A program made the position numbers and the translations under genes. From Anthoceros angustus (lineage: Eukaryota > Plantae > Anthocerotophyta), in the NCBI GenBank assembly GCA_010909165.1, contig MU008180.1:123884-187883 (forward strand): a DNA stretch of 64,000 nt, written 5' to 3'. Shown piece by piece: positions 2,112 to 61,192 of the stretch (position 1 is the first letter of the stretch; each line of letters begins with the position of its first letter). The notes under the pieces were generated by a model. The model did no database searches, was not told the DNA's origin, and worked only from the letters and a program-made list of their open reading frames with translations.

Positions 2112-2113
2112 GT

Positions 2114-27536: not shown

Positions 27537-30500
27537 ATGGCACCCAAAAAGCTGCGGAAGTTTGGGAGCCATGGAACCTCGTAGCGCAACATTGTGACCC
27601 GCGCTATCCGGACTTTGGGCCCGGCCGGAGGAAGCGGGAGAATTAGTGAGGAGTGGCACTGGATGTGTTCCACGGTCCGGACGCTCGACTGGCTACCCGT
27701 CCGGAGTTCCCAAGATGTTGGCGGTCAACAAGGAGGTTCGGTCCAAGAACCTCCGGGAGGACCCGAGGCGATGGACCTTGGAGGTCCTGAGGGCGGCCTA
27801 CAACCGCCCAAAGGAGGAAGAAGGGGGTGTGGTGCCAGAGCCCCTCAAGGCGAAGGGAAAGATAGGGCCGGCAACAGCGGCGATGCTGAGGCCTGGAACG
27901 CAGAGGACAACCAACGGCTGGTTGATATCCGACTCTTGGGCGGTCGAGTAAGGCGGTAGCCGGATCATTGTCCATTGAACTCGCCACCAAGGTGGATCAC
28001 CTTGGTGATAACTGCTGGTATTTCTCGCATGCGCTACCGGGAAGAGGCGGACGGGAAGGATTATCTTCGCCTGCGGCCGAGGCCCGCAAGCTCAGGAGCG
28101 AGAAGCCCTCGCCATCTGGGCTGTCCCCATACCTGATCCATGTATGGGGACATTTCGAGCTCCTGAAGGAGGGAGAGCTTGAGCGGGCGCTCCGGAAAGG
28201 ACTGGAGGCCCTGCCGGAAGTGGAGCGTGCAAGGGCGCCCGAGGTGGGGGCCGACCCTCTAAGGCCAAACGGACCCGGGAGGAGGACGACTGGGAGGGAA
28301 TTCCGGACTCCATACGTCTGGAACGGACCCCCTCACCACCCAGGGAAGTATGGGAGGAAATCCCCGCTTCCCTCCTCCTGGTGCCCCCGAGCAGCCCAAG
28401 CAGAGGCGGCCCCAACTCAATAGCCCACCACCACCACAACCACACCATGGAGCCTCGACGGAGGGAACCAAGAGACGCAAGACACACAACGCAAGACCTC
28501 GACGGTGCCAAGATTCTACCGCCTACCTGAGTGGCAAGAAGCGGACCGGGAGGAGGCGAGGAGGGCGTAAAGGACGCCTGTGAGCAGGAGGTCACCGCAG
28601 CACTGCACTGAGCCGGGTCCTGCCTCCGATGTGAAGAGGCAAAAGGCTTGCTCCCGACCCTCGAGGCCAAGCGGACCGGGAGGAGGCGGGAGGTCCGGAC
28701 TCCATCGTGCAGGCGGACCCCTCACCACCCAGGGAAGTATGGGAGAAATCGCTTCCCTCCTCACAGTGCCCGGGCGGCCGGTCTGGCGGGCGGCCCCAAC
28801 TCAATAGCCCGGCCTGACCACAACCACGGCGGCCGTGGAAGAGGCAAACGCAAGGCAGCGTCTACCAGCCGCACCTCGTGCCGGTGCCCCACCCTTGCAG
28901 GTGCTGAGAAGGCGGTAAGGAGGCGAAGGGCCTTGCCGAGGCGAGAGGTCATGGCGCCGGGCAGTCTGTCTCCGGCGGAAGAGGCAAAAGGCTTGCTCCG
29001 GACCCCTCACCTCCTCCGAGCCCTGTGAGAAAAAGGCGGAGAAGGAACTCGCGGCCAAAAGGGCCAAGGAGGGTGAAGCCCGAGTCAAGACTCAGACCTA
29101 AGGGTCCCGATTAGGTCCGAGAACCCACCGACTTACTCCTGACTGCGGTATGGAGGTCCTGGCGGACATGAAATGCCGCTCCCTACGGACTTTGTGGGAG
29201 CCTCACCAGTGGCGGCCGTGGAAGAAACACGGCGGGTCCTGGCTACCGTCATGGACGGTATGCTTTGGGGTCTCTGCGGGATGGCCGAGAAGACCCAGGA
29301 GGTAGAAGCCACCCGGAGGCGTATGGTACTCCTCCAGGAGCAGTTGGAGGGGGCCCAGGAGGCAAGGAGGAAGGCCGAAGCTCTCGGCCGAATTGAGGAA
29401 GGGAAACGCCGGGAGGCCGAGAGGGAAGTCTGGTCCATTCGCAAGGACCGGACTAAATTCCTTCAGCTGGAGGAGCAGCTGAAGCAGGCTAAGGAGGCCC
29501 AAGCGCGGGCTGAGGACCTCTGCAGGCGGAGAGGGGTAGCGCAGCAGGAGGCGGAAGAGGCCCGGGCGCAAGCGGAGAGGGCTCGGGACCTGGCGGAGGC
29601 GGCCCGACTAGACCAGAGCTGTCGAGAGGCCGTGAAGGTGGCCAAGGAGGCGGCCACGCAGCCGACCGCGATCACTATCGGCGTGATCGGGTGGAGGGAG
29701 GCTACCAGCCACGCCAATCAAGGCCGAGCAGCAAGAGAGCAAGCACGGACGAGCCGCGAAACACCGGAGGCCAAGACCCGGAAATCGGGGACCCTGTGGC
29801 GCAGGAGGTAGAAGGGAGGCGGCGGAGCAGCGGAGGAAGAAGGACACCTTGGAGTTACAACCCAAGACGCTGAGCAAAGCAAGGGGTTCTCAACGAGAGA
29901 GTCCAAGACTTCGAGAGAGAGCGCCCACTCAAGATGGAGCAGGAGGCGGCGGAGCAAGCGCGACCAGCCAGAAGTCGCGACAAGGAGATGGAGGATCTCC
30001 TGACTCACGGTGAGGTGGAGCAGAGAGAGATGGAAGACCGCAAGGAGACCTTGAGTCGCAGCCCAAACTACCATTGAGAGGAATGGTAGTCTCAGACGTG
30101 GTCGCGAACGCGAACGGAAATAGAGCGGCCCACCCTGACTGAGGCGGAGCGATGGAGCGAGGCGGGGCGTCGCCGAAATGGAGAAGGGAGGCGGCGGGGA
30201 GGCGGCAGAGTTGCCCGACCGTCTGAGAGGAGATGGCGAGTTAATGCCAATGGAGAGAAGCAAGAGCACGGAAGGCATAAGAAGCCGTCCGCTTGAGGAA
30301 GGCGGAAGCCACCGGGCGTATGGTACTCCTCCGGGAGGCGGCGGAGCAAGCGAGGAGTTGGAGGTGGAGCAACAACGGCGGGGAGGTGACCGAGGCAGCC
30401 TTGCACAAGGAAGTGGCCCTCCTATCAAACTGGCGGGGAGGTGGTCCAACAAGGCGTACGCTCGGCTCCGGAGCACCTATGGCGAAGGGAGTATCGGTGC

Positions 30501-31606
30501 CCCGCACACGTGGAAGAGGCAATCCAACAAGTGGATTCGGACTTTGCCTATTACCACGCCGAGCCCCGAAGAGGCCGGGCGCAGCGGCTCGGGACTGGCG
30601 GAGGCGGCCCGACTAGAGAGCCAAGGAGGCGGAAGCCCCGGTGAAGGTGGCCAAGGAGGCGGAAGCCACGGCAAGCCGATCACTCGGCGTGATCGGTGGA
30701 GGCGGCGGCGGAGATTGGACCACCAATCCCAAAGGCGGCGGGGAGGTGGCCGGACTCGGAGTCGAGGCCGGACCTCGAGGTCGGACTCGGGAAATAAACG
30801 GACTCACAGGTTCGGACTCGGCGTGATCGGGTGGAGGGAGGCGGCGGGGAGGCTGGAGGGCGAGGACACCTTGGAGTTACAACTCCAAGGCGTCGGAGCA
30901 CAAGGGGTTCTCAACGAGAGTCCAAGACTTGACGGGAGATAGGCGCCTCGGCTCTGCACGAAGATGGCGAGGCGGGGCGCAGCAGCGGACCGGCCGAGCC
31001 AGGAAGCTCGCGACAAGGAGATGGAGGATCTCGGACTCGGCTCGTGAGGTGGAGGCGGCGGCGGAGATGGAAGACGCAAGGAGACCTTGGGCTGACTTCA
31101 AACTACCATTGAGAGGAATGGTAGTGCGGGGCGTGGTCGCGGCAGCGAGCGAAATAAAGCGGCTCCATTGGCTGCGGGGAGATGCAGCGATGGAGCGAGG
31201 CGGGGCGTCGCCGAAATGGAGAAGGACACAGAAGCCCGATCGCGAGTTGCCCGGCCAAATGCAGAGGAGATGGCGGAGTTGCGGAGAATGGACGAAAAGG
31301 CGAGACAAAGGCTGCTGGTCGATTGAGGAAGGCGGAAGAGCAGCTGCGTTATGGTGGTATGGCGGGGCGGGCGGGGCGAGGAGTTGGGCGGTGGAGCAAC
31401 GGCGGTTGCGGGGAGGTGGCCGGCGGCCCTTGCGGCCTCGCGTGGCGGCAGCTCCGGCTATCAAACTGGCGGGGAGGTGGTCCAACAAGCCGGGCGCTCG
31501 ACTCCGGAGCACCTATGGCGAAGGAGTATCGGGTGCTCGGGGCTGGTGGAAGAGGCAATTCAACAAGTGGATTCGGACTTTGCCTATTACCACGCTGAGC
31601 TCCTGA
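27537..31606 (+). pseudogene. G1 accessory (env-position) ORF, frameshifted and internally duplicated: conserved N-domain plus long coiled coil
   Basis: MAPKK...NLREDPRRWTLEVLRAAYNRPKEEEGG...TTNGWLISD...KPSPSGLSPYLIHVWGHFELL; E/A/R-rich coiled coil in ORF 29173..29811; C-terminus ...WKRQFNKWIRTLPITTLSS. Confidence 0.8.
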
Positions 31607-32334
31607 AGGCGATGAGCCTCAGCTGCAAATAAACGGACCTGGAAGGCTCGGAGGAAGAAGGGCATGGGGACCACAGGGGACTCTAGTGGCCCCTGCTTGG
31701 AGACGACGGCAGGGGGAGAAGAGCCTCAAGAGGAGCGAGACAACGGACCCTGTGGTAAGTTCACCGCAACCCGCCTGGAGAAGGGAGGTGACCCCCGAAG
31801 GAGCCAACCCGACCCAAGACAAGGTCGGGTAGGGATGAGGACCTAGCAAGACGAGGTCCATGACAAGGGGTCCGGAGCTTGGGGACCGGACCGAATAAGT
31901 TCGACCCGAGGTCCGAACCCCAGAGACGAGGCCGGACCTCGAGGTCGGACTCGGGAAATAAACGGACTCACAGGTTCGGACTCGGAGTCGAGGCCGGACC
32001 TCGAGGTCCGGACCCAAGAAGAAGGAGGAGCCCTCTCGACTTACGCTTAGGGGAGCAGATAGGTGGCCCCACCGAGGGGACCCACGGGAGGCTGGGAGGA
32101 TGACGTTGGTAACGGGCGCCGCCGACACGCCGGAGCCAACCCGGCAGATTCCGGAGAAAGGAGGGGTCCCACCACGGATCATCCGATTGGGTGCGCCGAA
32201 TCGTGAGAGATTGGACCACCAATCCCAAAGGCGGAACCCGGGACCTTCCACCCACCACCGAAGGAGATAGGGGAGGAAATAGGATGGTAGGCGGCCGATT
32301 AGGTATACCGAAATGGCCATCACCGTAATAGGGG

Positions 32335-32848
32335 TGTAATAAAGACGCCGACTTGGGCGTAGTATAAGAGGGTCCGCTCAATAAATCATCTTTCTCTTGG
32401 TGTTGATGCCGCTCTGCGCACCTTGTGTGTCTTCTTGCTAACGTGAGTCCCGAGTCACCGAGCAGCACGCCTCCCGGAGAGATTGATCGGTTCCGTGACG
32501 AACCTAACGTGTCGCCCGCAGCCGCGCCCGCCGAACGGACCGAACGGTGAGCCGAGGGACTCGGGCGGCAGCCCGGACGAGAGGCCCAACGACGAGGAGG
32601 TCCTGACGTAACCCGCGGCCTTTCCCTAAGACCGATAAGTGTAGTGTGAGGGAGAGAGGAACGGACTAGAGGTGCGAGTGACTTAACGTGAACGATACGG
32701 ACGCGAACGGGTCCTTAAACGCTTGGCCACACCGGCTCGCGGTGAACGCTATGGTAGTTAGACGCGAATCGATGAATGTGTGCGCGTGAGACGAATCCGA
32801 AGTAAGACGAGAATCGCCCGAAAGCGCAAACGGAGCCCTGTCATTACA
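32335..32848 (+). mobile_element. G1 3' LTR (514 bp), preceded by a short PPT (ATAGGGG, 32328-32334)
   Basis: Perfect terminal inverted repeat TGTAAT (32335) ... ATTACA (32848). Confidence 0.85.
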
Positions 32849-33711
32849 TGGAGTGATTTTCTAAACCAAGTGGTCACAAAGAGGCCACATTTACCCTCTT
32901 TATCGCTAGACTTGAGATTCGTACCCAAGGGAGTGATTTCGTGTCAAGACAACCAAAACATAGCCAATCCAACCAAAACACGAGACATACAAAACATCTA
33001 GCGACTCTGAGACCAGCTACTATCCTAACAACACTCGGACATGGCTATCTTAGCCACGACTGTTGCTACCTTAACGGCGACCGGTTGCTATCTTAGCAAC
33101 CACCCTCTATTTTAGCAGTGGGACCCATCTCGGGTTCAGCTATTAATAGAAGGGTGGCCCACTTGGGGTCCAAGTGGATAAGATTGGACACCCTCTCTTA
33201 TCCTTCCACAAAGTCGGATCCACCAATCGAGTTGCGATCACACAACCCACCTCCTTACAGTAACACTTCCCGGATCTCTCTTTCTTCCCTCCAACCTTTC
33301 AGCTTTCCTCCCAAGCTTCATAGTCCTCCCAGGCTCTCACGACTCAGGTACCTCTTGCATCTCTCCATACTCCCCAAGTTCCTCTGCAACTCCTTCCGCT
33401 CCTTGTTCTCACACCTCACGGCCTCATTCAATCCCCACTTTCTCAGAAACATCACTTACGGACTTCTCCAATCCCTCTTACTTCTCTCCACAATCGGCAA
33501 CTCCCATGTCGGCATTTCCACTCCTCTCACAGTTCACTTTCTCACATTTTCCAAGCATACAAACCCGGACTCCGTCTCACTTCACCTTCTCTTCCACCCA
33601 CGGGCTCCCGCCTTGTCTCCTTTTCCACATGACCTTGACACCACAACTCAAACACAAGGTGAGTACTAGACAAGGAGAGAATGAGTAAGAATGGGACCTC
33701 CCGGCTTCACA
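32849..33711 (-). mobile_element. G2 3' LTR (~863 bp)
   Basis: Homologous to 50739-51584; minus strand starts TGTGAAGCCGGGAGG after PPT AGAGGAAGGGGAT (about 33712-33724). Confidence 0.9.
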
Positions 33712-34085
33712 ATCCCCTTCCTCTTATCCTTGGGAACTCCTCCAAGGAGATCACCAGTTCCTCCCTTGCTTTCCACCACTCTTGCGGATCTGGTCACACG
33801 GATCTGGGCAACAGTAGTCTTCTCGGCTCCTCCTGGCGGAGAAAGGTGCCTAGACTCACAGCCTGGATCTGGTACCCCCAAACCCCGTGCTCACCCCAAA
33901 CAGGACTTTAGGCCAACATTGCTTACATTTCATCAAGAGGCTGCCTCTTATACCCAAGATCAGCCCACAAAAGCGGCTTGGCGCTTGCCAAAAATACCAA
34001 TCGGTCTTAGTCCCAAGCCTAGAGGCCTATCTCTTAATTCTATCCACTATGAGGGAAGATTAGTCTATAACACATGGGCCTTCAT

Positions 34086-36190
34086 CTATTTGGGGCCACT
34101 TACCCTATTATCCCTCCACAGGCCTCCTAGGCCGCCTATGTTCTCCTCTTGCTCTTCTCCTCTTGGGGGTTGGGCAATCTCTCCACAAAATCTCCACCTC
34201 CTCGAGCTGGACTCCTCCCTCTCTTGTGCTCGCCGCTTACTCCTCCTCGGTGAGCTCTTGAATCTGGATGGGTCGGTGAAAGTCTCCCGTGAGTCCAACC
34301 CATAGGTAGGATCCGGTGCCGTCAAGGCATGGATCAAGTACCTCCATGTCCCCCCTGTGCCCACAACCACATAAACTTTCAGGGAGACAATCTTCTCTCC
34401 GGCCAAGGAGAATCCGGGCACATGATTATCTTGATAAGCATCCCTCAATCTAATGCACCATTGGGAAGTTAGACTTCTTAGGCGGTGCTTACCGCTCCCC
34501 AGCTGTTGTCCTCCTCCAGTCTTATTTGCCCCTTTCTTCCTTCTTTGGCTTTGGTCTTGGAGCTTATTCTGTTGTCTAGCAGTGCAGTGCTTCCCTAGCA
34601 ACCCGGTGCTTGCTTAGCAACCTCCTCGGCTGCTAACTCGGCAATGATTCTTCCATAGGAGCCTCGCCTCTTCCACGGTGGCCCTCCTTGCAATCCAGCC
34701 CTCTTGGCCTCCTTCCACCTTTCCTAGCCTCGTCCCTCTCCTTCTGCGCCGGTGAGGCATCCGAGGTTTCGGCCACTTGTGCATCGAAATAACATTCTGC
34801 AGCTCTCCTATGGTGCTTTGTGTCGGAGAGCCATGAGGCTTCTGGTCCTTAGACTTGCAACTCCTCTCGGACCTTCCCTATTTCCACTTCCAAGCTGCTT
34901 AGGCGTCCCTCCAAAACCTCCTTCTCCTTCTTCATCTTCTGGAGCTCCTCCAGCTGCTCCCCTTGTTGCTTCCCTTGCTGCGCCTGTAAACCTAACAAGG
35001 AGAGGACCAGAGCTATCTGATCTTCCATCTCGCCCCTGGTGCGTGCCATAGCTGAAACCAACTCCTGTAGGGTGATGTTAGGTCCCCAGACCTTGCTGGG
35101 AATGGGCTCCCTCCTTCCTATCTGTCGCAGCTGACCGCCCCCTGTCACAACTTCCGGGGTATACTTGAAAGACACTTCCTTGAACAGGTAGTCACTCTCT
35201 CGGATCAGCTCGGCTGTGCCCAAGGGTTGGTGATTCCTCCTGTTGACTGTGGTTTCCCGGCCCCAGGCTCCACAGGATATTGGTGCTGCCAGCCTTGCCC
35301 TTGTCTTGTACATCCGGTGAGCTCCCGTGCGCTCTTGTGGCTCTAGGTGTGTTGGAGTCCCCGTTGCTCCCGGCTCCTCTTGGTACTGTTGGGGCCTTAG
35401 CAGCTGTTGCCTTGTTAGCAACCCTTGGTACTACCTTAGCCAGTCACATTCCTTTCATGGACACTTGGACTTCTCATCTTCACTCCCGGTGCCCGAGATG
35501 GCCTCTTCCTCGACTCCTCTTTGGGCTTCCTTCTTTCAAACACGGCCTCCAGTGAAAGGTGAGACCATCTCCATTCCCTCCGGCAACTGGCATGGTCAAA
35601 ACGTGGATTAAGAAGGGAGATAGAGGCGAGGGCTAGGTGATGGTAGGGTCAAGTGGTCCCTCTCACACTGTTGTGTCATAGAACATCCGGCCCAATCTAT
35701 CTTGGACCCTCTCACCACCTCATAGAAAGACAAGGAAATGGTCGGCAATGTGCTCCAGCTTCTTAGTGAGTGAGAGCAGGATCCACTGGCTAATCCGGCC
35801 CTCGGTCTAGCTTGTTGGTGACCCAGCCATTCTCCACTCTAGACAATGTGGGAGCAATGACCGCTTGTGCCTCCTGCGACTTTTGAGGAGATGGTTTCTG
35901 AAAGGTCAATGATTATCCGCCACATTCCTCTTGGTCTCTCATAAACAGCCCGAACAATGAATATTCCAGTGCGGGGTTGGTCCTCACGTTGCCTTCCCCA
36001 ATGGCCTTCTCCCTCATGCGCTCTGCACACTCCAAAACCAACGTGGGCTATTGTAGCACCACTTTTTGTCCATGAAGGACGGTGATGCTTAGCCACCAAA
36101 GACCCCGCCTTCACTCTCCGATTGCCCCATATTGGGCCATTGGGCGATCGTAATGGCCTCAATGGCGGCCGGATTCTTCTTAGGCGCCAT
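34086..36190 (-). pseudogene. G2 accessory (env-position) ORF, copy A (copy B about 36450-38267; 3' part again at 51917-52830)
   Basis: MAPKKN...ED.P(HWNIH)IVRAVYERPRG...SRVENGWVTNK...FYEVVRGSKIDWAG...SPLASISPFLIHVL, read across frameshifts; coiled coil QLEELQKMKKEKEVLEGRLSSLEVEIGKVREEL. Confidence 0.8.
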
Positions 36191-38231
36191 GCTCCTGTCC
36201 CGAATTCAACTTAGACAGCAAAGGCGGGATCCCCACAGCCGAACAGCCGCTCGGCTTCGGCCTCCGCGGTGGCGAGTGTCACCTGATTTTGCCGGGCGGA
36301 ATCGCAATCCGGTTCGCGGTGACCCACTGCGCCGTCACCATCTCCGCGCTTGGTGGCCGCGGTGATGTTCCGGCCCCTCGTGTACTCTGCCCGGCGACTC
36401 GGCGCTTGCCGGCGGTGACCCCCACCTTCTGGTTATAAGAATCCCTATGTTTTCCGGACCTCCATGTCCCTCGTGCCCACAACAACATAAACTTTCGGGG
36501 AGATAATCTTCTCTCCACCAAGGAGAATCCGGGCACATGATTATCTTGATAAGCATCCTCAATCTAATGCACCATTGGGAAGTTAGACTTCTTAGGCGGT
36601 GCTTACCCGCCTCCCTGCTTTGTCCTCCTCCCGATCTTCTTGCCTTTCTTCCTTCTGGCTTTGGTCTTGGAGCTTGTTGTTGCTTCCTAGCAAGAGTCTG
36701 GCTTCCCTCAACGGCGGTTGCTTGCTTAGCAACCTCCTCGGCTGTTGCTAACTCGGCAACAGATTCTTCCATAGGAGCCTCTGCCTCTTCCACGGTGGCC
36801 CTCCTTGCAATCCTGGCCCTCTTGGCCTCCTTCCAGCCTTTCCTAGCCTCGTCCCTCTCCTTCTGTAGCGCTCAGCGAGGGCATCCGAGGTTTCAGCCTG
36901 CACTTGTGCATCTGAAATAACATTCTGCAGCTCTCCTATGGTGCTCTGTGTGTCGGAGAGCTGAGCCATGAGGGCTTCCTGGTCCTTAGACTCACGCAAC
37001 CCCCTGACCTTCCCTATTTCCACTTCCAAGCCGCTAGGCGTCCCTCCAAAACCTCCTTCTCCTTCTTCATCTTGAGCTCCTCCATGCTCCCTGTTGCTTC
37101 CCTTGCTGCTGTAAACCTAACAAGGAGAGGACGAGCTATCTCGATCTTCCATCTCGCCCTGTGCCATAGCTGAAACCAACTCGAGGGTGATGTTAGGTCC
37201 CGGACCTTCTGGAATGGGCTCCCTCCTTCCTATCTGTCAGACCGACCGCCTCACACAACTTCCGGTATACTTGAAAGCCACCGCTTGAATGTAGTCACTT
37301 TCTCGGACCCGCCGTGCCCAAGGGTTGGTGATTCCTCCTGTTGACTGTGGTTTCCCGCCCCTGCCCTGGATATTGGTGCTGCCCCGGCCTTGCCCTTGTC
37401 TTGCTTCGCCTGTGTGAGCTCCCGTGCGCTCTTGTGGCTCTAGGTGTTGGAGTCCCCCCGGCTCCTCTTGGTACTGTTGGGGCCTTAGCAGCTTGTTTTG
37501 TTAGCAACATGCTACCTTAGCCACGGTCACATTCCTTTCATGGACACTTGGACTTCTCATCTTCACTCCCGGTGCCGGAGATGGCCTCTTCCTCCGACTC
37601 CTCTTGGGCTTCCTTCTTTCAAACACCGGCCTCCAAATGAAAGGTGAGACCATCTCCATTCCCTCCAAAGAACTGGCATGGTCAAAACGTGGATTAAGAA
37701 GGAGATAGATGAGGGGCTAGGTGATGGTAGGGTCAAGTGGTCCCTCTCCCTCGCATGTCATAGAACATCCGGCCCAATCTATCTTGGACCCTCTCACCAC
37801 CTCATAGAGAAAGACAAGGAAATGGTCACAATGTGCTCCTTCTTAATGAGTGAGAGCACAGGATCCACTGGCTAATCCGGCCATTTCGGTCTAGCTTGTT
37901 GGTGACCCATTCTCCACTCTAGACAATGTGGGAGCAATGACTTGGCCTCCTGCGACTTTTGAGGAGATGGTTTCTGAAAGGGTCAATGATTATCCGCCAC
38001 ATTCCTCTTGGTCTCTCATAAACAGCCGAATAAATTGAATATCCCGGGGTTGGTCCTCACGTTGCCTTCCCCAATGGCCTTCTCCCTCATGCGCTCTGCA
38101 CACTCCAAAACCAACGAGGGGCTATTGTAGCACCACTTTTTGTCCATGAAGGACGGTGATGCTTAGCCACCAAAGACCCCGCCTTCACTCTCCGGTGCCC
38201 CATATTGGGCCATTGGGCGGTCGTAATGGCC

Positions 38232-38966
38232 TCAATGGCGGCGAGGAGTATTCTTCTTAGGCGCCATGCTCCCTGTCCCAAATTCCCGCTTAGCCACCAA
38301 GACTGGAGGATGCCTCGCCGGCTCCACTGGCGAGTGTCCGCCTGATTTTACGCCGGAATCCGCAATCACGTGCAGGACTGTGCACTTGCCCCACCCCCTA
38401 TCCGCTCGGTGACCGGCTTCGATTATTCCAGCCCTCGTGTTACTCCTGCTCCGCCACGGCATGCCCAACGACTTGTGGCGTGACCATGCTGCCTCGGTTA
38501 TAAGAATCCCTATGTTTTCCGGGACATTCCTCGATCGCCCAGGCTTCCTGTCCCGACCACACCGCTTTTCCACCAATTTTGCGGGAGTTCCTGGCCATAC
38601 TGGCCTATCAACCCACCGTGCTCTTCCCAACTTCTTGCGGCACCGCGCCCGCGCACCGCCCGCCCTCTGCGCCGCCCCGGACGCCACCAATCGATTCGGT
38701 CCTCCCTGCGCGCTCGTCGCTGATGCCGCCAGCGACTCCCGGCTGTGCCACGCCCTTGTGTCGCCGGCGTTCGCTCGGTCTCCGTCCACGTGCGCCGAGC
38801 TTGAGGCGGCGCCGTCTTCAATCCGCTGGATTCGATGCAAATCCTCTTCCCCTTTGTTCTTAATTGCCAATAGGACCCCCTTACTTCCGTTTGGGTATTC
38901 CTTGTAATTCCATCGATTGGATTTTCCGAAGTCATTGGAAAGAAACTCCAACTTGGTTGCTACCAT
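38232..38966 (-). other. G2 second post-integrase ORF of unknown function (further copies start near 40800 and 42585)
   Basis: MVATKLEFLSND(L)ENPIDGITRNTQTEVRGSYWQLR..KRICIESSGLKTAPPQAR...RKKLGRARWVDR, reconstructed from three differently frameshifted copies. Confidence 0.45.
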
Positions 38967-39379
38967 AGCAACAGCTCCGAGTCGGTTGTGGTCATAGCAG
39001 CAGCCTGTAGCCTAGCAACGCGTTAGCAACGAGCGGAACCCTCCGAGGTTACATCCGGGATCGGGACTAGACTCTCTTCCTCCTACTAGGCTCTAGTAGA
39101 CTTTTCTTTATTCCTAACCTACTTCACATTCCAACTCCACACGATTCTCACTTAAACACAAAACAAAAAAACACTCCTTTCCGAGTGCGGTACCCATGTG
39201 GTCACCACATACTCCCTTCTCATTTGTTGGCGTCCCGCCAACTTATTAATGTCTACTTCACATTCCAACTCCACACGATTCTCACTTAAACACAAAACAA
39301 AAAAACACTCCTTTCGAAATTACCCATGTGGTCACCACATACTCCCTTCTCATTTGTTGGCGTCCCGCCAACTTATTAA

Positions 39380-43850: not shown

Positions 43851-43869
43851 GTCCTTTTGACCATCCTTG

Positions 43870-46800: not shown

Positions 46801-47452
46801 GGTGATTCCACCTCCGTCTCTTTCTTCTTTCATGACTTCCTCCTAGCTTTTCACTCCTAGTGCGCACCATGGCTGCTCTCGTAGTCTCCTCCACACCCCA
46901 GTCCATCTAGCTCCCGCAACACCATGGCTTCCTCCAGTCCTGACATACTCGAATCTTTCCAGGCTGCTTCTTAGGAACCACAACAATCGGAGCCACCCAC
47001 TCTGTGTTGACGATTGGATAGATGACGTCTGCCTTCAAGTACAATTCAAGCTGCTCCTTCACCTTCAGTAAGTACTTTGGGTTCAGCTTGTATTGGGGAA
47101 TTCGCACGGGAGTCGCTCCTGGCTCCAAATCGATCCTATGCTCCCCCCACTTCTTGGGAATTCCCTTCATATCTGTCACCTCGAAGGCAAACACGTCGAT
47201 GAACTCCTGTTTCATTCCTTCTTCCAACGCTGGTTCCACTGTGCAAACTTCAGCACCTTCCGGGCAATACCTCCACATCCTTAATCTCGTCCGCTTGTAC
47301 CCATTCTCGCTCCACGGTGCTGAACTCTCACCAAACCCTTCCTCCGGTTCACGAGGTCCTCTTCCCTCATCCCCACTCCTAAATAGGTCCTCGAGGTGAA
47401 TCGAATGATCCTGGCTCACCTTTGTCCTCTGTTGTCTCTCCTTCCTTAGCAA
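43870..47452 (-). pseudogene. G2 RT/RNase H (about 43870-45500) with a duplicated RT N-terminus (46907-47400) and an intervening protease copy (about 46100-46300)
   Basis: IDLEPGATPVRIPQYKLNPKY, EWVAPIVVVPKKQPGKIRVCQDWRK, KFMEVFLDDF, EREALGMVYS; protease LDTGSGVNIMT. Confidence 0.93.
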
Positions 47453-47469
47453 CCGTTGTTCACCGGTTT

Positions 47470-50086: not shown

Positions 50087-50718
50087 GACGTCGTCACTAT
50101 CCCGGCAACGCGATTGTTGGTCTAGCAGGATCTCTGTAGCATACTGTCAAAAGTTCTTTGAGTTCACGGGCACAAGTTGACCAGGTCGGAAGACAAGGAT
50201 GGTGTCGGTCCTAGGCACTGTTGCTTCTTGGCTCCTCCGGTCGTTGCTTTCTTGTGCTCTCCTCGGCTCTCGATGCGCTTCGCCTCGCTCCACGGCAGCG
50301 TTGTCTTCTTCTTTGAGTCTTCTCTTCACGGTGGGTATGGGCTGCTTAGTTATTGCAAAAGGCGAAGTCGCCATGGATCGTCACTATCCCGGACCGCGAT
50401 TGTTGGTCTAGCAGGATCTCTAGCATACGCCAAAGTTCTTGAGTTCACAATGCATTCAGACGGAGGTCGGAAGACAAGGATGGGTCCGGTCCTAGGCGTG
50501 CTTGCTTCTTGGCTCCTCCAGAGTGCGTTGCTGCTGTGCTCTCCTCGGCTCTCGATGCAGCCCTTCCGCTCCACGGCAGCGTTGTCTTCTTCTTTGAGTC
50601 TTCTCTTCACGGTCGGAACTTTCGGACTCAATGGGTAGCATCCATGTATCACACTCAAGACTCCCAATACACTACTAGACAAGGTTAGTCTACTCTAAGG
50701 TCTTGACAACAATGACAC

Positions 50719-50735
50719 TCCCGGCAGCGGCGCCA
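50719..50735 (-). promoter_or_regulatory. G2 primer-binding site, tRNA-Asp type
   Basis: Minus strand TGGCGCCGCTGCCGGGA, 3 nt from the LTR end; close to the complement of the plant tRNA-Asp 3' end (TGGCGCCGTTGCCGGGG) used by Athila elements. Confidence 0.88.
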
Positions 50736-50738
50736 AAA

Positions 50739-51584
50739 TGTGGAGTGATTTTCTAAACCAAGTGGTCACAAAGAGGCCACATTTACCCTCTTTATCGTTG
50801 TAGACTTGAGATTCGTACCCAAGGGAGTGATTTCGTGTCAAGACAACCAAAACATAGCCAATCCAACCAAACACGGACATACAAAACATCTAGCTAGACG
50901 CTACTATCCTAACAACTCGGACTGTGGCTATCTTAGCCACGCGACCTGTTGCTACCTTAGCGGCCAGTTGCTATCTTAGCAACCACCCTCTATTTTTTAG
51001 AGGGGCCCATCTCGGGTTCAGCTATTAATAGAAGGTGGGGCCTTGATCCAAGTGGATAATTGACACCTCTCTCTTATCCTTCCACAAAGTTAGATCCACC
51101 AATCGGGTTGCTCACACAACCCACCTCCTTACTCTTGTAACTTCTTCCGGATCTCTCTTTCTTCCCTCAACCTTTCAGCTTTCCTCCCAAGCTTCATCGT
51201 CCTCCCAGGCTCTCACGGCTCACAGTACCTCTTGCATCTCTCTCCTCCCCAAGTTTCCTCTGCAACTCCTTCGCTCCTTGTTCTCACACCTCACGGCCTC
51301 ATTCAATCTCCACTTTCTCAAACATCACTTCGGACTTCTCAATCCCTCTTACTTCTCTCCACAATCACAACTCTCCATGTTGTTTCCTCCTCTCAGTTCA
51401 CTTTTCGCTCACATTTTCCAACATACAAACCCACGGTTCCGTCTCACTTGACCTTCTCTTCCACCCACGGGCTCCCGCCTTGTCTCCTTTTCCCATGACC
51501 TTGACACCTGAAAACTCAAACACAAGGTGAGTACTAGACAGGGAAGAGAATGAGTAAGAGAATGGACAGCCTCCCGGCTTCACA
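50739..51584 (-). mobile_element. G2 5' LTR (~846 bp), also serving as the 3' LTR of an upstream copy
   Basis: TG...CA ends; PBS on its left and PPT complement (ACCCCTTCCTCT, from 51585) on its right. Confidence 0.9.
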
Positions 51585-52830
51585 ACCCCTTCCTCTTGAC
51601 CTTGGGAACTCCTCCAAGGAGACCACAGGCTCCTCCTTGCTTTCCACCACTCTTGCGGATCGGCCACGGATCTGGGCAACAGTAGTCTTCTCGGCTCCTC
51701 CACGGAGAAGCGGTGCCTAGACTCACGACCTTTGGATCAGTACCCCCCAAACCCCGTGCTCACCCAAACACCGAGACTTTAGGCCAACATTGCTTACATT
51801 TCATCAAGAGGGCTGCCTCTTATACCCAAGATCACCCACAAAGCGGCTTGGCTTGCCAAAAATACCAATCGGTCTTAGCCTACCAATCCTAGAGGCCTAT
51901 CTCTTAATTCTATCCACTATGAGGATAAGATTAGTCTATAACACATGGGCCTTCTATTTGGGCCACTTACCCTATTATCCCTCACAGGCCTCCTAGGCCG
52001 CCTAGGCCCATGTTCTCCTCTTGCTCTCCTCCCTCTTGGCTGGTTGGGCAATCTCTCCCACAAAATCTCCACCTCCTCAGCTGGACTCCTCCTCTCTTTG
52101 CCGCATAGCACAGTACTCCTCCTCGGTGAGCTCTTGAATCTGGATGGGTCGGTGAGAGTCTCCCGTAAGTCCAACCCATAGGTAGGATCCGTGCCGTCAA
52201 GGCATGGATCAAGTACCTCCATGTCCCCCTGCCCACAACAACATAAACTTTCGGAGACAATCTTCTCTCCAGCCAAGGAGAATCCGGGCACATGATTATC
52301 TTGATAAGCATCCCTCAATCTAATGCACCATTGGGAAGTTAGACTTCTTAGGCGGTGCTTACCGCTCCCCAGCTGTTGTCCTCCTCACAGTCTTGTTGCC
52401 CCTTTCTTCCTTGTTGGCTTTGGTCTTGGAGCTTATTCGTTGTTGCTTCCCTAGCAGTGCAGGCTGTTGCTTCCTAGCAGCGGCGGTTGCTTGTAACCTC
52501 CTCATGTTGCTAACTCGGCAAGATTCTTCCATAGGAGCCTGCCTCTTCCACGGTGGCCTCCTTGCAATCACAGCCCTCTTGGCCTCCTTCCGACCTTTCC
52601 TAGCCTCGTCCCTCTCCTTCTGTGGCGCTCGGCGAGGCATCCGAGGTTCGGCTGCACTTGTGCATCGAAATAACGTATGCAGCTCTCCTATGGTGCTCTG
52701 TGTCGGAGAGTGAGCCATGAGGCTTCTGGTCCTTAGACTTCATGCAACTCCTCTCGGACCTTCCCTATTTCCACTTCCAAGCGGCGTCCCTCAAAACCTC
52801 CTTCTCCTTCTTCATCTTACGGGCTACGCT
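51585..52830 (-). mobile_element. PPT and 3' internal region of a second G2-family copy, interrupted by G3
   Basis: Homologous to 33712-34940; repeated again at about 54320-54770. Confidence 0.88.
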
Positions 52831-52839
52831 GGAGGCATC

Positions 52840-53926
52840 CGGGGCTCCCGAGATGCACCCTCTAGCGGCCACACTTATCCTTTGTCGTTTCGTCGTTGGG
52901 TTTCGTCCCATGAGACTTGGGAAGCGGTCGAATCTTGAGAATCCGTCACTACTGCGGCTACACACTACCTCAGCCTTCTAAACAAGCAAGGCGCCCTCTC
53001 ACGCTCCCTCTCAGCTCGCGCCCGTCTTTGCCGTAAACTCACCAAACCTCAACCTAGCGACACCACACAATTGCAGTTCGTCTTAACAGGTGTCTATCAC
53101 GGGCGCCAGGGGACCCCCACGACCCACACGCAACCGTCCCTACTCCTAAGACACTCTTCTCCACAGGGGCGCCCTCTTACTTGCAGTTGGGATTCGTCCC
53201 TTAGGCTCTGCACTGTGGCCTTAGTTTTCCTACACTCTAATCCTCCTCACAACTCTCTCAATCAACAACGCCCTCTTCTTCTCTACTCATCTACCCTTCC
53301 TTCCTCCACAATCTCCTACTCTAACACCAATTCTGGCTCATTAATTCCAACTCGCCCTTACGGCTGGCACAGGGTCGTCAGGAATTAACGAGTTCTTCCT
53401 TGGGCGGTTGCTATGTGGTTTGCAGACGGCGAGAACCTCCGAGTCTTTCCTGCAGTCTACCCTCAAGCCGAGAGTTCCTTGAGCATCGCCACACACTCAA
53501 AGCAAAACAATTCACCGGCAACCATTCACAAGGGAGGCGGCTAGCGGGCGCTGCAAGAGCAAGCCCTCCACCCAGCACTCCGACCGCGCGTTCTCCCTCT
53601 CTACCAGACACTGCGTTGGCTTGCGGCCGGCGAAATTCACGCACACAAAGTGAAGGACTCGGGAGGATGGGAGCGCAAGACACGATAATTTTACTTCACA
53701 AGCTCCCTCCTTTTATGGGAGGTCCTCACATACTGCCTCCCACAGCGCGCCCTCACAGCCGCCTTACTCCTTATTTTAGTGTATCCTATTGTATTTAAGT
53801 TCGACATCCAAGCATCTTGGGTAAAATTCTATTCTAGCAAAATTCACCTATGTGAGCCTTAATGGCTCCTGTCAACATTCCTATCTAGCTAGTCAACACA
53901 CTCTCTTTGGTGACAAGCATTAATAC
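52840..53926 (-). mobile_element. G3 3' LTR (~1.1 kb; left edge approximate); second copy about 54770-56531 with an internal ~690-bp duplication
   Basis: PPT AGAGGAGGACA (53927-53937 and 56532-56542) followed by TGCATTAAT in the second copy; TATAAAAG on the minus strand near 55627-55634. Confidence 0.75.
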
Positions 53927-56586
53927 TGTCCTCCTCTAAAGAAAAGTCTTCCCAAGTGGCATCTTGCCCCATGTCTTCAAGCTAATTTAAGGACTTCTTA
54001 TGAATCCCTTCCTTATCTTGATGCCTATCTTGAGTTCCTTCCTCCAATAAAATAGCCGGGCTCTCTTAGCCGGCTCATCCTCGACTTCTCCTCTTCCTCT
54101 CACTTGTGGAGCAAGTGAGCTCCTTGCTCCTGCACCCATGTTAGGAGGTTGGTCTTCTCCTTGTGATTCTTGCTCCATTCACAAGATCAACCCCTCTTCC
54201 TTCTTTCTGCAAGGGCCAAGGTACTCGCCTCCTTGCCGTCAAATCCATGCTAGCGACCTTTGAATCCTGCTTCTTCCTCCTACCATGGTAGGACCTTCTC
54301 CTACGGTAGGAGTCCCTCCTCCACATCTTGCCCCTTTCTTCCTTGTGGCTTTGGTCTTGGAGCTTATTGATTGTTGCTTCCCTAGCAGTGCAGGCTGTTG
54401 CTTCCCTAGCAGCGGCGGTTGCTTGCTTAGCAACCTCCTCGGTACATTGCTAACTCGACAGATTCTTCCATAGGAGCCTCTGCCTCTTCACGGTGGCCTC
54501 CTTGCAATCCACAGCCCTCTTGGCCTCCTTCCGACCTTTCCTAGCCTCGTCCCTCTCCTTCTGTGGCGCTCGGCGAGGCATCCGAGGTTTCACTGCACTT
54601 GTGCATCTGAAATAACATTACTCTCCTATGGTGCTCTGTGTCGGAGAGTGAGCCATGAGGGCTTCTGGTCCTTAGACTTAGCCAACTCCTCTCGGACCTT
54701 CCCTATTTCCACTTCCAAGCTTGGCGTCCCTCAAAACCTCCTTCTCCTTCTTCATCTTGGAGCTCATGGGAGATCCGGGGCTCGAGATGCACCCTCTAGC
54801 GGCCACACTTATCCCTTTCGTTTCGTCGTTGGGTTTCGTCCCATGAGACTTGGGAGCGGTCGAGATCTTGAGAATCCGTCACTACACCGCACTACCTCAG
54901 CCTTCTAAACAAGCAAGGCGCCCTCTCACGCTCCCTCTCAGCCTACGCGCCCGTCTTGCCGTAAACTCACCAAACCTCAACCTACAGCGACACCACAATT
55001 GCAGTTCGTCTTAACGGCAGGTGTCTATCACGGGCGCCAGGGGACCCCCGACCCACACCGCAACCGTCCCTACTCCTAAGACACTCTTCTCCACAGGGGC
55101 GCCCTCTTACTTGCAGTTGGGATTCGTCCCTTAGGCTCACATGGCCTTAGTTTTCCTACACTCTAATCCTCCTCACAACTCTCTCAATCAACAACGCCCT
55201 CTTCTTCTCTACTCATCTACCCTTCCTTCCTCCACAATCTCCTACTCTAACACCAATTCTGGCTCATTAATTCCAACTCGCCCTTACGGCTGGCGCAGGG
55301 TCCGTCAGGAATTAACGAGTTCTTCCTTGGGCGGTTGCTATGTGGTTTGCAGACGGCGAGAACCTCCAGTCTTTCCTGCAGTCTACCCTCAAGCCGAGAG
55401 TTCCTTGAGCATCGCCACACACTCAAAGCAAAACAATTCACACAACCATTCACAAGGGAGGCGGCTAGCGGGCGCTGCAAAGAGCAAGCCCTCCACCCGG
55501 CACTCCGCGTTCTCCTCTCTACCGGACCTGCGTTGGCTTGCGGCCGCGAAATTCACGCACACAAAGTGAAGGACTCGGGAGGATGGGAGCGCAAGACACG
55601 ATAATTTTACTTCACAAGCTCCCTCCTTTTATAGGGAGGTCCTCACATACAGCCTCCCACAGCGCGCCCTCCACAGCCTTTGCCTCCTTATTTTAGTGTA
55701 TCCTATTGTCAGACTTTAAGTTCTGACATCCAAGCATCTTGGGTAAAATTCTATTCTAGCAAAATTCACCTATGTGAGCCTTAATGGCTCCTGTCAACAT
55801 TCCTATCTAGCTAGTCAACACACTCTCTTTGGTGACAAGCATTAATCCTCCTCACAACTCTCTCAATCAACAACGCCCTCTTCTTCTCTACTCATCTACC
55901 CTTCCTTCCTCCACAATCTCCTACTCTAACACCAATTCTGGCTCATTAATTCCAACTCGCCCTTACGGCTGGCGCAGGGTCCGTCCAGGAATTAACGAGT
56001 TCTTCCTTGGGCGGTTGCTATGTGGTTTGCAGACGGCGAGAACCTCCAGTCTTTCCTGCAGTCTACCCTCAAGCCGAGAGTTCCTTGAGCATCGCCACAC
56101 ACTCAAAGCAAAACAATTCACACAACCATTCACAAGGGAGGCGGCTAGCGGGCGCTGCAAAGAGCAAGCCCTCCACCCGGCACTCCGCGTTCTCCTCTCT
56201 ACCGGACCTGCGTTGGCTTGCGGCCGGCGAAATTCACGCACACAAAGTGAAGGACTCGGGAGGATGGGAGCGCAAGACACGATAATTTTACTTCACAAGC
56301 TCCCTCCTTTTATAGGGAGGTCCTCACATCTGACCTCCCACAGCGCGCCCTCCACAGCCTTTGCCTCCTTATTTTAGTGTATCCTATTGTCAGACTTTAA
56401 GTTCTGACATCCAAGCATCTTGGGTAAAATTCTATTCTAGCAAAATTCACCTATGTGAGCCTTAATGGCTCCTGTCAACATTCCTATCTAGCTAGTCAAC
56501 ACACTCTACTGGGCTGACAAGCATTAATGCATGTCCTCCTCTAAAGAAAAGTCTTCCCAAGTGGCATCTTGCTCCATGTTTTCAAG

Positions 56587-59500
56587 CTAATTTAAGGACT
56601 TCTTATGAATCCCCTTCCTTATCTTGATGCCTATCTTGAGTTCCTTCCTCCAATAAAATAGCCGGGCTCTCTTAGCCGGCTCATCCTCGACTTCTCCTCT
56701 TCCTCTCACTTGTGGAGCAAGTGAGCTCCTTGCTCCTGCACCCATGTTAGGAGGTTGGTCTTCTCCTTGTGATTCTTGCTCCATTCACAAGATCAACCCC
56801 TCTTCCTTCTTTCTGCAAGGGCCAAGGTACTCGCCTCCCTTGCCGTCAAATCCATGCTAGCGACCTTTGAATCCTGCTTCTTCCTCCTACCATGGTAGGA
56901 CCTTCTCCTACGGTAGGAGTCCCTCCTACCACAGTAGGAACTCCTCCTACCAGTAGGAGTTCCTGAGGTTTTCTTCTTCCTTACCCCTTCCTGGGGTGAT
57001 TCTCTCCACCTGTGCAGCTTCCCCCGCTTTACTCGCTTCTCCCTGGTGCGAAGTTTCTCCACCCCTGTTGCTTGGGACACTCTCCAAGTCTAAGGCTTCC
57101 GGTTGGACTTGCATGAGGGCCTCCCTATCATCGTCATGAGGTCCCAACATCCTCCTCTCAGCAAGTCGCAACAACTCGTTAGTGGCCTTGAGCACCTTGT
57201 TGTGAAGATGGGCTGCAAATCGTTGTTGTGCCATCTCCAATTCTTCGTAATCCTCAAGCCATACTCCATGCTCACACTTGCTTTTGTAAGCATCTCGCTC
57301 CAAGGCCAGCTCACGGTCTTGACATGGAGAGCCACATTCTCCGTCCTCTCATTACTGCGGTTGGCGGATCAATCTCTCTTGTAGGGCATAATCAGCCCGA
57401 AATCTGCTCCCTCACCGCCAACATATCTTTGCACCGCCTCATGGCCTTTCTCCTTTGCCATTTCTTCCTCCAACTCCCCTATCCTCCTAGGGAGTTGTGC
57501 ACTCTCCGTTCTTTGGACTTCTCGTTCCATTTCCAATCTTTGGACAAAATGTGTCCGTTCTTCCAGCTCTTCTTCCTTCAATTCCAGCCTCCGTGATTTC
57601 TCCCAGCTCCTTTTCCATGTCACTAATCTTCACACGGCTGTGTGGCTATGACCCGCTCATGTCGCCTACTTGCCTTTGTCTTTGTCCTCATTTCTTTGCG
57701 GTGCTCTCGTCTTGACCTTTCCTCCATTAGCAGCACTTGCTTGTCTTCCTTCTTTTCCATGTGCGCACCATGTGAGCAAGTTGCTCCACCTTCTCCTCTC
57801 GAGCTGCCAATTGCTTGGTAAGAGCCTTGTTCTCCGAATATGATTGTTTGCCTCCTGCCTTGTTTCAAGACTCTTTTCCAAGTGCTCCACTTGAGCTTCC
57901 ATCCTCATAACATCCTCCTGCTGGGTTTCCGCTCGCCTACCGCAATTTCCCTTGCTTGGTAGGTCCTTGTCTTCTCCGCCTCCGTCTTCAAGAATTCAAC
58001 TCTCCTCTTGGCGGCTCCTATCTACCTTCTTGAACATCTCCCCTATGCATCTCCTCCAACATGTCTAAGTCTCCTTTCTTACCTCCGGGAGACTCAAGGC
58101 CTTTGCCTTGCTCATGGGATCTTACATCCCTTGCTTCCCTATGATGAGCTCCCGCTCATCACTTGGTGGGGCAACTCCTCCCACCGTGACTCCATCCGCT
58201 CGCCCACCTAGCAGGGGTTGCCTTCTTATCTCCTCTTGGGAGCTTCCAAACCGTGACTTCCTTTTCCCTCCTACCGTGGTAGGAGGTGCTCCTAGTAGGA
58301 CTACTTCCTACCGTGGTAGGACTAATTCTGCCCGTAGGCCTTGTCATGAGGAGGACGAAGGGGTCCAAACCACTGGGAACACCTCCCACCCTCGCGGCAG
58401 ATTCACCGCCAACATGTCTTTGCACCACCGCCTCATGGCCTTTCTCCTTTGCCATTTCTTCCTCCAACTCCCCTATCCTCCTAGGGAGTTGTGCATTCTC
58501 CGTTCTTTGGACTTCTCGTTCCATTTCCAATCTTTGGACAAAATGTGTCCGTTCTTCCAGCTCTTCTTCCTTCAATTCCAGCCTCCGTGGTTTCTCCCAG
58601 CTCCTTTTCCATGTCACTAATCTTCACGGCTGTGTGGCTATGACCCGCTCATGCGCCTACTTGCCTTTGTCTTTGTCCTCATTTCTTTGATTGCTCTCGT
58701 CTTGACCTTTCCTCCATTAGCACTTGCTTGTCTTCGCCTTCTTTTCCATGTCGCACCATGTGAGCAAGTTGCTCCACCTTCTCCTCTCGAGCTGCCAATT
58801 GCTTGGTAAGAGCCTTGTTCTCCGAATATGATTGTTTGCCTCCTGTAGCCTTGTTTCAAGACTCTTTTCCAAGTGCTCCACTTGAGCTTCCATCCTCATA
58901 ACATCCTCCACCTGGGTTTCCGCTCGCCTACAATTTCCCTTGCTTGGTAGGTCCTTGTCTTCTCCGCCTCCGTCTTCAAGAATTCAACTCTCCTCTTGGC
59001 GGCTCCTATCTACCTTCTTGAACATCTCCCCTGCGCGCATCTCCTCCAACATGTCTAAGTCTCCTTTCTTACCTCCGGAGACTCAAGGCCTTTGCCTTGC
59101 TCATGGGATCTTACATCCCTTGCTTCCCTATGATGAGCTCCCGCTCATCACTTGGTGGGGCAACTCCTCCCACCGTGACTCCATCCGCTCGCCCACCTAG
59201 CAGGGGTTGCCTTCTTATCTCCTCTTGGGAGCTTCCAAACCGTGACTTCCTTTTCCCTCCTACCGTGGTAGGAGGTGCTCCTAGTAGGACTACTTCCCTC
59301 GTGGTAGGACTAATTCTGCCCGTAGGCCTTGTCATGAGGAGGACGAAGGGGTCCAAACCACTGGGAACACCTCCCACCCTCGCAGCGGGATTCACGCCAT
59401 GGTAGGATCTATCCTACCTTCCATCTCCGCATCCTCCGCGGTCCAAACTTCAAATCCCCTACAACTTCTCCTTGCAAGTCCTCCTGCATCCTCGGCCTAT

Positions 59501-61061
59501 CTTTCGGAGGATTCCTTCCGGCAATAATGTCCGGTGGTGCTGCACCTCCTTTAGCAAAGCACCAAGCACTCCTGTCCCTCTCACAGGTAAGTACACAATG
59601 TTAAAGGGATGCTTGGAATCATCCAACTCCTTACTTGTGAGTAGCCTCTACTTCCCACAAATGCACTAGATAAGTGCTAAGATAGCATGGCCTTGGGTGT
59701 CTTCATCCGAGCGTTGGGTTTGACAACTTTTCCGGTGGTAGGTGTATGCTTCATACATGATGAGCCCCAATCCGGCTTCGCTCCTTGAGTGATCTTCCAT
59801 AGAAAATGGAGGAAGGTAGTGCTGAAATATGACACCTTGGATTGCTCACCAAGCCCAAAACAATTCTTGTGAACAATCTCCACTTGGGCTCCAAGATTTG
59901 GTCCGTCCGCCAACCATTCTTAGACTTAGCCTTCATGCCCCCTTGCATAAGGGTAAGGGCTCCCTTGGGAAGATCCGCCGTTGATGCACGCTTGCCTCCG
60001 CTCGTTCCTTCCATCAACGTGATTCCGCTATCCTCGCTATCCGGCCTGCCATATACCTGGCGTATGCTCCTTACAGTCCAACACCGTGGATCCGTCCGTG
60101 CGTTTCTATCCGGTAAGGCGGCCAATTCCTCTTCCGTCTGCTGCAAATTAGCAAAACACTCTTCTATCAATTCAAGGTTGGTGTAGGACCAATGTCGCCC
60201 ATACACCCACTCTAGCTGTATATTCTCCTCTGCTGCCCAAGGTCGAAAGTCTGAAAGGTCTCTAGAGGATAGCTGGCCTGCATAGCACGTAAATAAGGGC
60301 ATGTCAAATTTCCACCCTCAGTCATCCTCCTTAGACCTCTTGCGCTCCTGCGCCACCTCCTTGGTGGACGCTCCTTCCTTAGCTACTACCTCCTTGCCCT
60401 TGGTCATGGTAGGCTTGGTCATGGCCTCCTTGGTTAGTACTTGCGAAATTGAAGAAAAGTGATGCCTCTCCTGCAATTCCTGCGGCTCACCGACTTCTTA
60501 TCCTTGCAAACGTTTCTCCTCCTCTGATTTGCTCTTGCTCACAGCTCAAAGGTCCTTGCCTTGCTCTCCTCCTCAGCCCTTACACCTTGGCGTCCTCAAA
60601 ACCCGATTTCTCCTGCAAGAAAGCTCACAAAATTCCCCCGGACTCTTACACACATCAATTTAGGAGCCCTTCACACGGTTTCCTAGCAATCTTGCCACGC
60701 TCCACCCTCCTAGGCACCCTCACGAGCTTGGCAAGTGTTGGGTTGCGCCCCAACCTTCTTCTCCCTTCTCTTCTTCTCTTTTCCTCCTTCTTCCTCTCTT
60801 GGGCGCTGGCGGATTTCGCCTCCTTCTTGAGCTTGCGCCCTCCTTCTCCTCCTCAACACAGGCGCGTGTACGGCGTTGCTGTATGGGGCCTTGGGCAGCT
60901 TGAGGTGTGGCGGCGCCTTCTGCTGTGGTAGTCTCTTCAAGTTTCGAGTTGTGGCCTCCTGCGGGCACTGCGCCACTTTTATAAGTCACCCAAGGGTTAG
61001 AAAAAGTAACTACCATTCTATCCTGCCCTTGGATGTGTGCCACGTGGCCCTTTCCCACCAT
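56587..61061 (-). pseudogene. G3 accessory (env-position) ORF, frameshifted and internally duplicated: conserved domain plus coiled coil
   Basis: NARTDPRCWTVRSIRQVYGRPDSEDSG...SKNGWRTDQ...ITQGAKPDWG...PCYLSTYLVHLWE; coiled coil ELKEEELEERTHFVQRLEMEREVQRTE...LEEEMAKEK. Confidence 0.82.
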
Positions 61062-61192
61062 TGATGTTAGTTTCCTAATTTCCTTATACTAAAATACCAT
61101 TTCCCTATTTTTCTAATTTCTAATTCTGAAAATTAGCCTCTAATTTCTTAATTACCTATTTTGGCCTATTTATCTAGTCCACTAAAAGACTC

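Follow-up and report, generated by a model that had tools for sequence, protein, structure and literature searches.

Three elements, designated G1, G2 and G3, crowd one stretch of the Anthoceros angustus genome, and each carries an extra open reading frame (ORF), raising the question of what such a gene does in a plant retrotransposon. The stretch analyzed spans 64,000 nucleotides (contig MU008180.1, positions 123,884 to 187,883; hereafter the window). The original prediction regarded the ORF as an uncharacterized gene conserved in the env position of otherwise dissimilar elements, and its product as nuclear or cytosolic rather than an envelope glycoprotein. As described below, the three ORFs are, judged by their sequences, homologous; the gene lies inside the long terminal repeat (LTR) of G2 and likely of G3, and its product is predicted to combine a VANC/PMD-like fold with a coiled coil.

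Conservation of the extra ORF in G1, G2 and G3

All the quoted motifs are present in the three elements, in identical order and at nearly equal spacing. G1, on the plus strand, has MAPKK at 27537, REDP at 27754, AYNRP at 27796, NGW at 27913 and, in another frame, SPYLIHVW at 28124. G2, on the minus strand, has MAPKK at 36190, REDQP at 35988, VYERP at 35946, NGW at 35831, DW at 35697 and SPFLIHVL at 35620; these belong to copy a of an ORF doubled in tandem, the second copy (b) beginning at 38267. G3, also on the minus strand, has RTDP at 60098, VYGRP at 60056, NGW at 59918, DWG at 59772 and STYLVHLW at 59678. Counted from the first motif, the distances are 42/159/370 nt in G1, 42/157/368 nt in G2 copy a, 38/150/358 nt in copy b and 42/180/420 nt in G3. 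G2 indeed has to be read across frameshifts, its first motif spanning two frame changes, and the MAPKK start, a putative nuclear localization signal correctly assigned to G1 and G2, is limited to these two and was not seen in intact relatives.

Homology was assessed by a frameshift-tolerant scan restricted to 1-kb places, with column shuffles as the null and a profile built from relatives outside the window only. G1 scored 35.6 bits (z 10.1) and G3 26.8 bits (z 6.0), and none of 60 shuffles scored as high in either case. G2 copy a reached just 19.1 bits, with 2/60 shuffles as high, copy b gave no signal, and all eight control stretches remained at background. With natural G1 and G3 pieces, and none of G2, added to the profile, G2 copies a and b rose to z 9.7 and 5.5 (0/100 shuffles each), compared with z 1.8 for the highest of eight controls. 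Across the whole window, the top peak was G1 (34.8 bits, against shuffled maxima of 19–25), and the second was G3 (25.0 bits, at the edge of the shuffled null). Evidence from single pieces is thin, with E values of 0.011 (twice) for G1 and 0.47 and 1.3 for G3 among 2436 window pieces. The profile scans thus bear out the conservation that had been seen by eye.

A hydropathy scan of 16 pieces and proteins revealed neither the signal peptide nor the transmembrane anchor of a retroviral-type envelope; the top 19-residue Kyte-Doolittle mean was 0.98 in eight window pieces, as which the broken window ORFs were read, and 1.3 in eight relatives. The product is probably nuclear and, as predicted, probably not an envelope glycoprotein. 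The coil pieces contain 26–33% E/K/R, consistent with the predicted E/K/R-rich coiled coils.

Intact relatives and purifying selection

Protein searches with the unbroken G3 piece returned nothing real, and a 1.84-billion-entry HMMER scan gave two matches, a PKD protein and a repeat protein, both of which were rejected. Metagenome and viral contigs contained no relative of this piece, the ESM Atlas contained none of the G3 and G1 pieces, and the viral contigs held no integrase relative. With the G3 integrase as the query, 54 metagenome loci were retrieved (numbered with the prefix L). Six of these (L002, L003, L004, L006, L010 and L012) have a same-sense ORF behind pol, up to 742 residues long, with the motifs R.P..WT, [DH]G[HWF], V[ND]W and SPYL.HLY, and organized as a domain, a coil and a low-complexity tail. 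A sister form is present in L007, L008, L009 and L042 and a decayed form in L028, L043 and L044; the ORF was not seen in the other 31 of the 44 loci scanned, many of them short or decayed. Out of 7025 candidates, the profile also matches 262 proteins that are unnamed or labelled "hypothetical", and such extra-ORF proteins are presumably annotated in liverwort and moss genomes. The sister and main families align over 176 columns (P 0.003; score 27 vs 9–17 for shuffles), and their other profile comparisons were not significant (P 0.18 in the first, 0.06–0.11 with a 31-row profile). A tree of 31 rows, from fetched loci only, places G2 on a very long branch. Plant-type gypsy integrases 59–62% identical to that of G3 also occur within a metagenome-assembled Stigonema record (L055 and L056), likely plant DNA binned with the Stigonema metagenome genome.

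The ratio of nonsynonymous to synonymous substitution rates (dN/dS) is 0.088 for L008/L009, whose integrase gives 0.025; other pairs gave 0.13 and 0.33, and two of the five pairs were saturated. In unbroken domain frames of G3, 8/10 substitutions are synonymous (from 40 listed of 145). The ORF is under purifying selection, as the motif conservation had implied.

Predicted fold of the extra ORF product

The fold was taken from the intact relative L010 and not from the broken window copies. Its predicted structure matches VANC21, the anti-silencing protein of the Arabidopsis transposon VANDAL21 (PDB 9lnk), with 195 of 221 residues aligned, and the next-best chain scored 2.2. Foldseek searches of PDB and BFVD were blank, also on a second look, and gave no viral fold match; 9lnk was not among the matches of PDB sequence searches. 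The predicted fold of the sister protein L007 has a predicted local distance difference test score of 39, and a fold search from it is meaningless.

Pfam searches of 132 window pieces returned rows for gag, integrase, coil and F-box/kelch only. DUF1985, the domain of VANC21, gave no row at E up to 1 in five intact relatives or up to 5 in seven window pieces, and is not among the 25 of 71 Pfam families listed for 125 members; PF10536 (PMD) matched neither window pieces nor relatives. The sister family L007/L042 weakly matches PF20167 (Transposase_32) over positions 8–169 of 177 (E 4e-5, 21–24 bits, cut-off 45), and no such match was found in the main family or window pieces. Taken strictly, "uncharacterized" does not hold up for the ORF: the predicted fold has a characterized look-alike, and the sister family weakly reaches Transposase_32. 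PMD and DUF1985, suggested as leads, pointed in the right direction through the L010–VANC21 fold match, though not through Pfam. The product is VANC-like by prediction and is not a VANC member by carrier or sequence.

Probable location of the ORF within the LTR

In G2, G3, L003, L004, L006 and L010, a purine tract and a TG start are located 25–90 nt behind the pol stop. In L006, this start (TGTGGGAGC) pairs as a 9-nt inverted repeat with the end that precedes the primer site, and in the circular L002 the ORF is located between the tract and the primer site. The G2 repeat before the primer site ends with CCACA, holds the 3′ end of the ORF and is interrupted at 52818 by G3 sequence. Because the tract and TG precede the ORF, and given the L006 inverted repeat, the L002 order and the G2 repeat, we place the ORF inside a 4–5 kb LTR in G2 and likely in G3, which has likely inserted into the 5′ LTR of G2. 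The G2 3′ LTR is ~4.2 kb long if only a single copy is counted of its 2.1-kb and of its 0.13-kb tandem repeat, and the far end of the G3 LTR was placed from the junction with G2 sequence. We also weighed whether 50739–52818 might be a third, upstream element with a shared LTR, but preferred a long LTR as the simpler reading.

Within the window, G1 lacks gag, pol and a matching 5′ repeat, and it has two candidate sites of tract and TG (25671 and 32330); it may be a solo LTR, a remnant LTR or another layout. The env position is thus wrong or unproven. At 32848/32849, the candidate G1 end and the 3′ end of G2 abut tail to tail without a target-site repeat, and G2 may have inserted in G1.

G2 and L006 share the primer-binding site TGGCGCCG.TGCCGGG, which we take to be of the tRNA-Asp type. 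The L006 pol has one RNase H and no chromodomain, and G2 is so broken that a second RNase H might escape notice there. A non-Met primer site and the lack of a chromodomain are marks of the Athila/Tat (OTA) non-chromoviruses, and an extra RNase H marks Tat.

Family-specific words

VANC21 recognizes a short motif that is dense in no family but its own (PMC5735166), and we therefore searched the elements for such words. In G3, the 690 nt preceding the ORF contain GTAGGA 15 times, in many cases as part of CCTACC-N2-GGTAG palindromes, and a TATA-like box follows. G1 has CGGAC-type words, reached by 0/200 shuffles in both flanks. G2 has GTTGCTA-N3-TAGCAAC palindromes both in the spacer and close to the end of the LTR; their half-site recurs 9–10 times in each coding block vs 0.5 expected, with none in G1 and one in G3. 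Another form of palindrome in G2, TTAGCAAC-G-GTTGCTAA, is located at 46535–46551 and 48308–48324, between protease and reverse transcriptase (RT). In L006, L010, L004 and L003, the words chosen from the spacer also turn up in pol more often than synonymous-codon shuffles would give. The words differ by family: GTTGCTA in G2, CCTACC in G3, CCGGA in L006/L010 and CCAATT in L007/L042. A short family-specific motif is thus present at high density in G2, G3, G1 and most relatives, L002 being an exception. The heaviest word load observed lies at 1–2189 of L042, where AACCAAT/AATTGGT occurs 17–19 times vs 1.4–1.9 expected; L007 has it too. At 5440–5843 of L004, two 150-nt direct repeats rich in TCCGGA follow the extra ORF.

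A model of self-recognition and its alternatives

We explain G1, G2 and G3 as distantly related non-chromovirus Ty3/gypsy-type elements that share a gene, LTR-borne in G2 and likely in G3, whose VANC/PMD-like product would bind the element's own word and likely counter silencing or activate promoters. We consider this explanation about evenly balanced between right and wrong. The gene would be transcribed from its own promoter in the U3 region of the LTR, with the TATA-like box behind the word array, and the protein would enter the nucleus via its basic N-terminal stretch. It would then bind the family word in both LTRs and along the element, as a dimer on the palindromes, and by analogy with VANC21 or MAIL1 may keep the element transcribable. 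Being part of the LTR, the gene would persist in solo LTRs and work in trans, and G1, with no gag-pol here, is a possible such remnant.

Several observations weigh against this explanation. No top 6-mer in the G2 spacer exceeds the null (179/200 shuffles), and L002 and the spacers of L007 (short) and L008 show little or no word enrichment. A blind word test passes 4/9 gene-bearing frames and 2/16 others; L039/L040 and L046 have enriched words (TAGTCGA, TCCGTAA) in decayed pol, where an extra ORF was not detected within 5 kb; and related loci have the protein as well as the word in common. A second purine run with TG, of lower quality, at 33725/51597 counts against the long-LTR interpretation.

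It is unlikely, though a serious contender, that the gene and the words are unlinked, the VANC/PMD-like fold acting on chromatin or integration and the words being read by host transcription factors, by integrase, or by Gag as RNA hairpins. The gene without a word in L002 and the words without a detected gene in L039/L040 and L046 would fit this, as would the words in coding DNA and the palindromes, which would fold in RNA. However, the words differ among three elements exposed to the same host factors and cluster just ahead of the gene's TATA-like box, and the closest solved structure belongs to a protein with exactly such a word-binding habit. That the VANC21 match is a chance helical likeness, and that the ORF encodes its own fold serving the virus-like particle as a chaperone, RNA-binding protein or oligomeric coil scaffold, seems quite improbable given the extent of the alignment and the low score of the next chain; moreover, VANC21 is itself an accessory protein of a plant transposon, and extra ORFs in which PMD is joined to a coiled coil have been described in Tat elements (PMC4408406).

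It is very improbable that the product is a true envelope or a movement protein through which particles exit the cell. Its sense, its position downstream of pol and its long coil would suit such a protein, and PF20167, weakly matched by the sister family, occurs in an Athila ORF described as having one transmembrane helix (PMC11728184), but neither a signal peptide nor a membrane segment was seen in the 16 pieces and proteins, the ORF comes after the purine tract, and no viral fold matches. Hardly credible is a chance alignment in GC-rich, error-ridden DNA: single pieces score poorly, querying databases directly with the G3 piece gave nothing and the outside-only profile missed G2, but the shuffles of the profile scans already refute chance, and the motif spacing is equal and the place behind integrase the same as in intact relatives.

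Comparison with known systems

VANC21 is carried by a Mutator-like DNA transposon, whereas the extra ORF belongs to LTR retrotransposons and follows a Ty3/gypsy integrase in G2, G3 and relatives; unlike in VANDAL21, the words occur in both orientations, are palindromic and extend into coding DNA. The DUF1985 domain of VANC21 reportedly resembles PMD in structure (10.1101/2024.09.27.615353), and the possible link of the extra ORF to the PMD fold rests on this published likeness. PMD (PF10536) with a coiled coil occurs in extra ORFs of Tat/Ogre elements and in host MAIN/MAIL1 (PMC4408406, PMC6317226, 10.1101/2024.09.27.615353, PMC13547354). These ORFs likewise are retrotransposon-borne and join a domain to a coil, but they are reported as upstream of gag or antisense, whereas ours is in sense within the LTR (G2, likely G3) and lacks a PF10536 match. 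No extra ORFs are reported for moss Tat-like elements (PMC4408406), and Phygy and Selgy are termed short (PMC6317226). The "env-like" ORF of Athila is also in sense behind pol; published descriptions place it between pol and the 3′ LTR and in some cases give it a membrane helix (PMC11728184; PMC7264820). The weak PF20167 match in the sister family recalls it; the purine tract ahead of the ORF and the lack of a membrane segment set ours apart.

The role of plant retrotransposon extra ORFs has been open for more than 20 years (PMC7264820, PMC6317226). Our literature search, whose scope excluded the VANC21 structure paper and the PMC6317226 supplements, found nothing tying these ORFs to VANC, an LTR location or family words. 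The novel points are the bridge to PF20167 and the presence, within one genome, of three divergent families that differ in their words. For each of several families, these three included, a candidate DNA-binding fold can now be matched to a candidate target word. If the model is correct, LTR retrotransposons gain a sequence-specific counter-silencing system, solo LTRs would be active trans-acting genes, and the families would form a natural library of protein–word pairs bearing on the origin of VANC and MAIN/PMD. A broader proposal, tentative and rather doubtful, is that the "env-like" genes of plant non-chromovirus retrotransposons, including PF20167, encode, instead of envelopes, VANC/PMD-fold proteins that bind DNA in a sequence-specific way, and that in non-seed plants a gene in the LTR, retained by solo LTRs, and a family-specific palindromic word spread over the whole element form full, co-diverging self-recognition systems. 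In that case, anti-silencing of the VANC type would be ancient in land-plant retrotransposons and would not have arisen in eudicot DNA transposons.

Assembly quality and other features of the window

Table 1 Coordinates of features assigned to G1, G2 and G3 in the window.
Feature	Position	Strand	Remarks
G1 upstream non-coding stretch	25677..27536	+	Purine run + TGTGG 25671-25681, two ~830-nt tandem units, CGGAC/ACTCCG words; no gag/pol upstream
G1 extra ORF, frameshift-broken	27537..31600	+	Domain ~27700-28200, coil 29143-29808, 3′ part tandemly repeated
G1 candidate short terminal repeat	32336..32848	+	TGTAAT...ATTACA behind purine run; candidate G1 end
G2 3′ LTR	32849..39339	-	TGTGG start behind purine tract; contains extra ORF
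G2 palindrome cluster near LTR end	33044..33100		Twin at 50924-50983
G2 extra ORF copy a	34300..36190	-	MAPKK start, domain ~36050-35560, coil
G2 extra ORF copy b	36400..38267	-	Tandem repeat, 87% identical; likely assembly artefact (skipped by contigs of run X1)
G2 word cluster, GTTGCTA-N3-TAGCAAC	38956..39030		Upstream of extra ORF
G2 polypurine tract	39340..39351	-	Directly behind integrase stop (39376)
G2 gag-protease-RT-RNase H-integrase, frameshifted	39376..50000	-	RT doubled, integrase tripled in tandem
G2 primer-binding site	50718..50735	-	TGGCGCCG.TGCCGGG, identical in L006
G2 5′ LTR, visible part	50739..52818	-	Ends CCACA, has extra ORF 3′ end, cut at 52818 by G3
G3 likely 3′ LTR	52819..61691	-	~5 kb without tandem repeats; TGTGG behind purine tract; contains extra ORF
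G3 extra ORF	56800..61061	-	Basic N-terminal stretch, domain ~60320-59640, coil (1-kb tandem repeat); start codon not fixed
G3 CCTACC/GGTAGG word array	61240..61480		Several palindromic; just upstream of TATA-like box (61192-61201)
G3 polypurine tract	61692..61704	-	Behind integrase stop (61735)
G3 integrase	61735..64000	-	Runs off window

The assembly is rich in indels. Because gaps outnumber mismatches in 8/9 repeated pairs of the window, and short-read contigs (run X1) contradict the window at many indels, one break at 2702/2708 depth, we consider the frameshifts to be mostly assembly artefacts. The three families are all multi-copy, with X1 depths of hundreds to thousands in most bins vs ~5 in the flank. 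Head-to-tail repeats of 0.7–2.1 kb lie at 21587–24146, 25853–27497, 34340–38300, 40517–44091, 45129–48703, 52396–56933 and 57412–59399, and the gap excess over mismatches in them extends even to non-repetitive flank. The X1 contigs skip several of the tandem repeats. The head-to-tail repeats are likely long-read assembly artefacts, and therefore the repeated integrase and RT blocks would not be biology.

Outside the three elements, an intact, intron-less F-box/kelch gene is located at 19589–21064 (plus strand), surrounded by broken elements. Ty1/copia pieces, recognized by RNase H, RT and integrase among the listed ORFs, lie at 1500–5200 and 2036–3522 together with a direct repeat of 257 nt, and repeated CACTA-type transposase-like fragments were recognized by eye at 10000–16000 (minus strand). 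At 16441–16872, a 54-nt unit repeated six times adjoins a tRNA-Met-type primer site at 16874 (minus strand) and is perhaps the LTR of the copia element.

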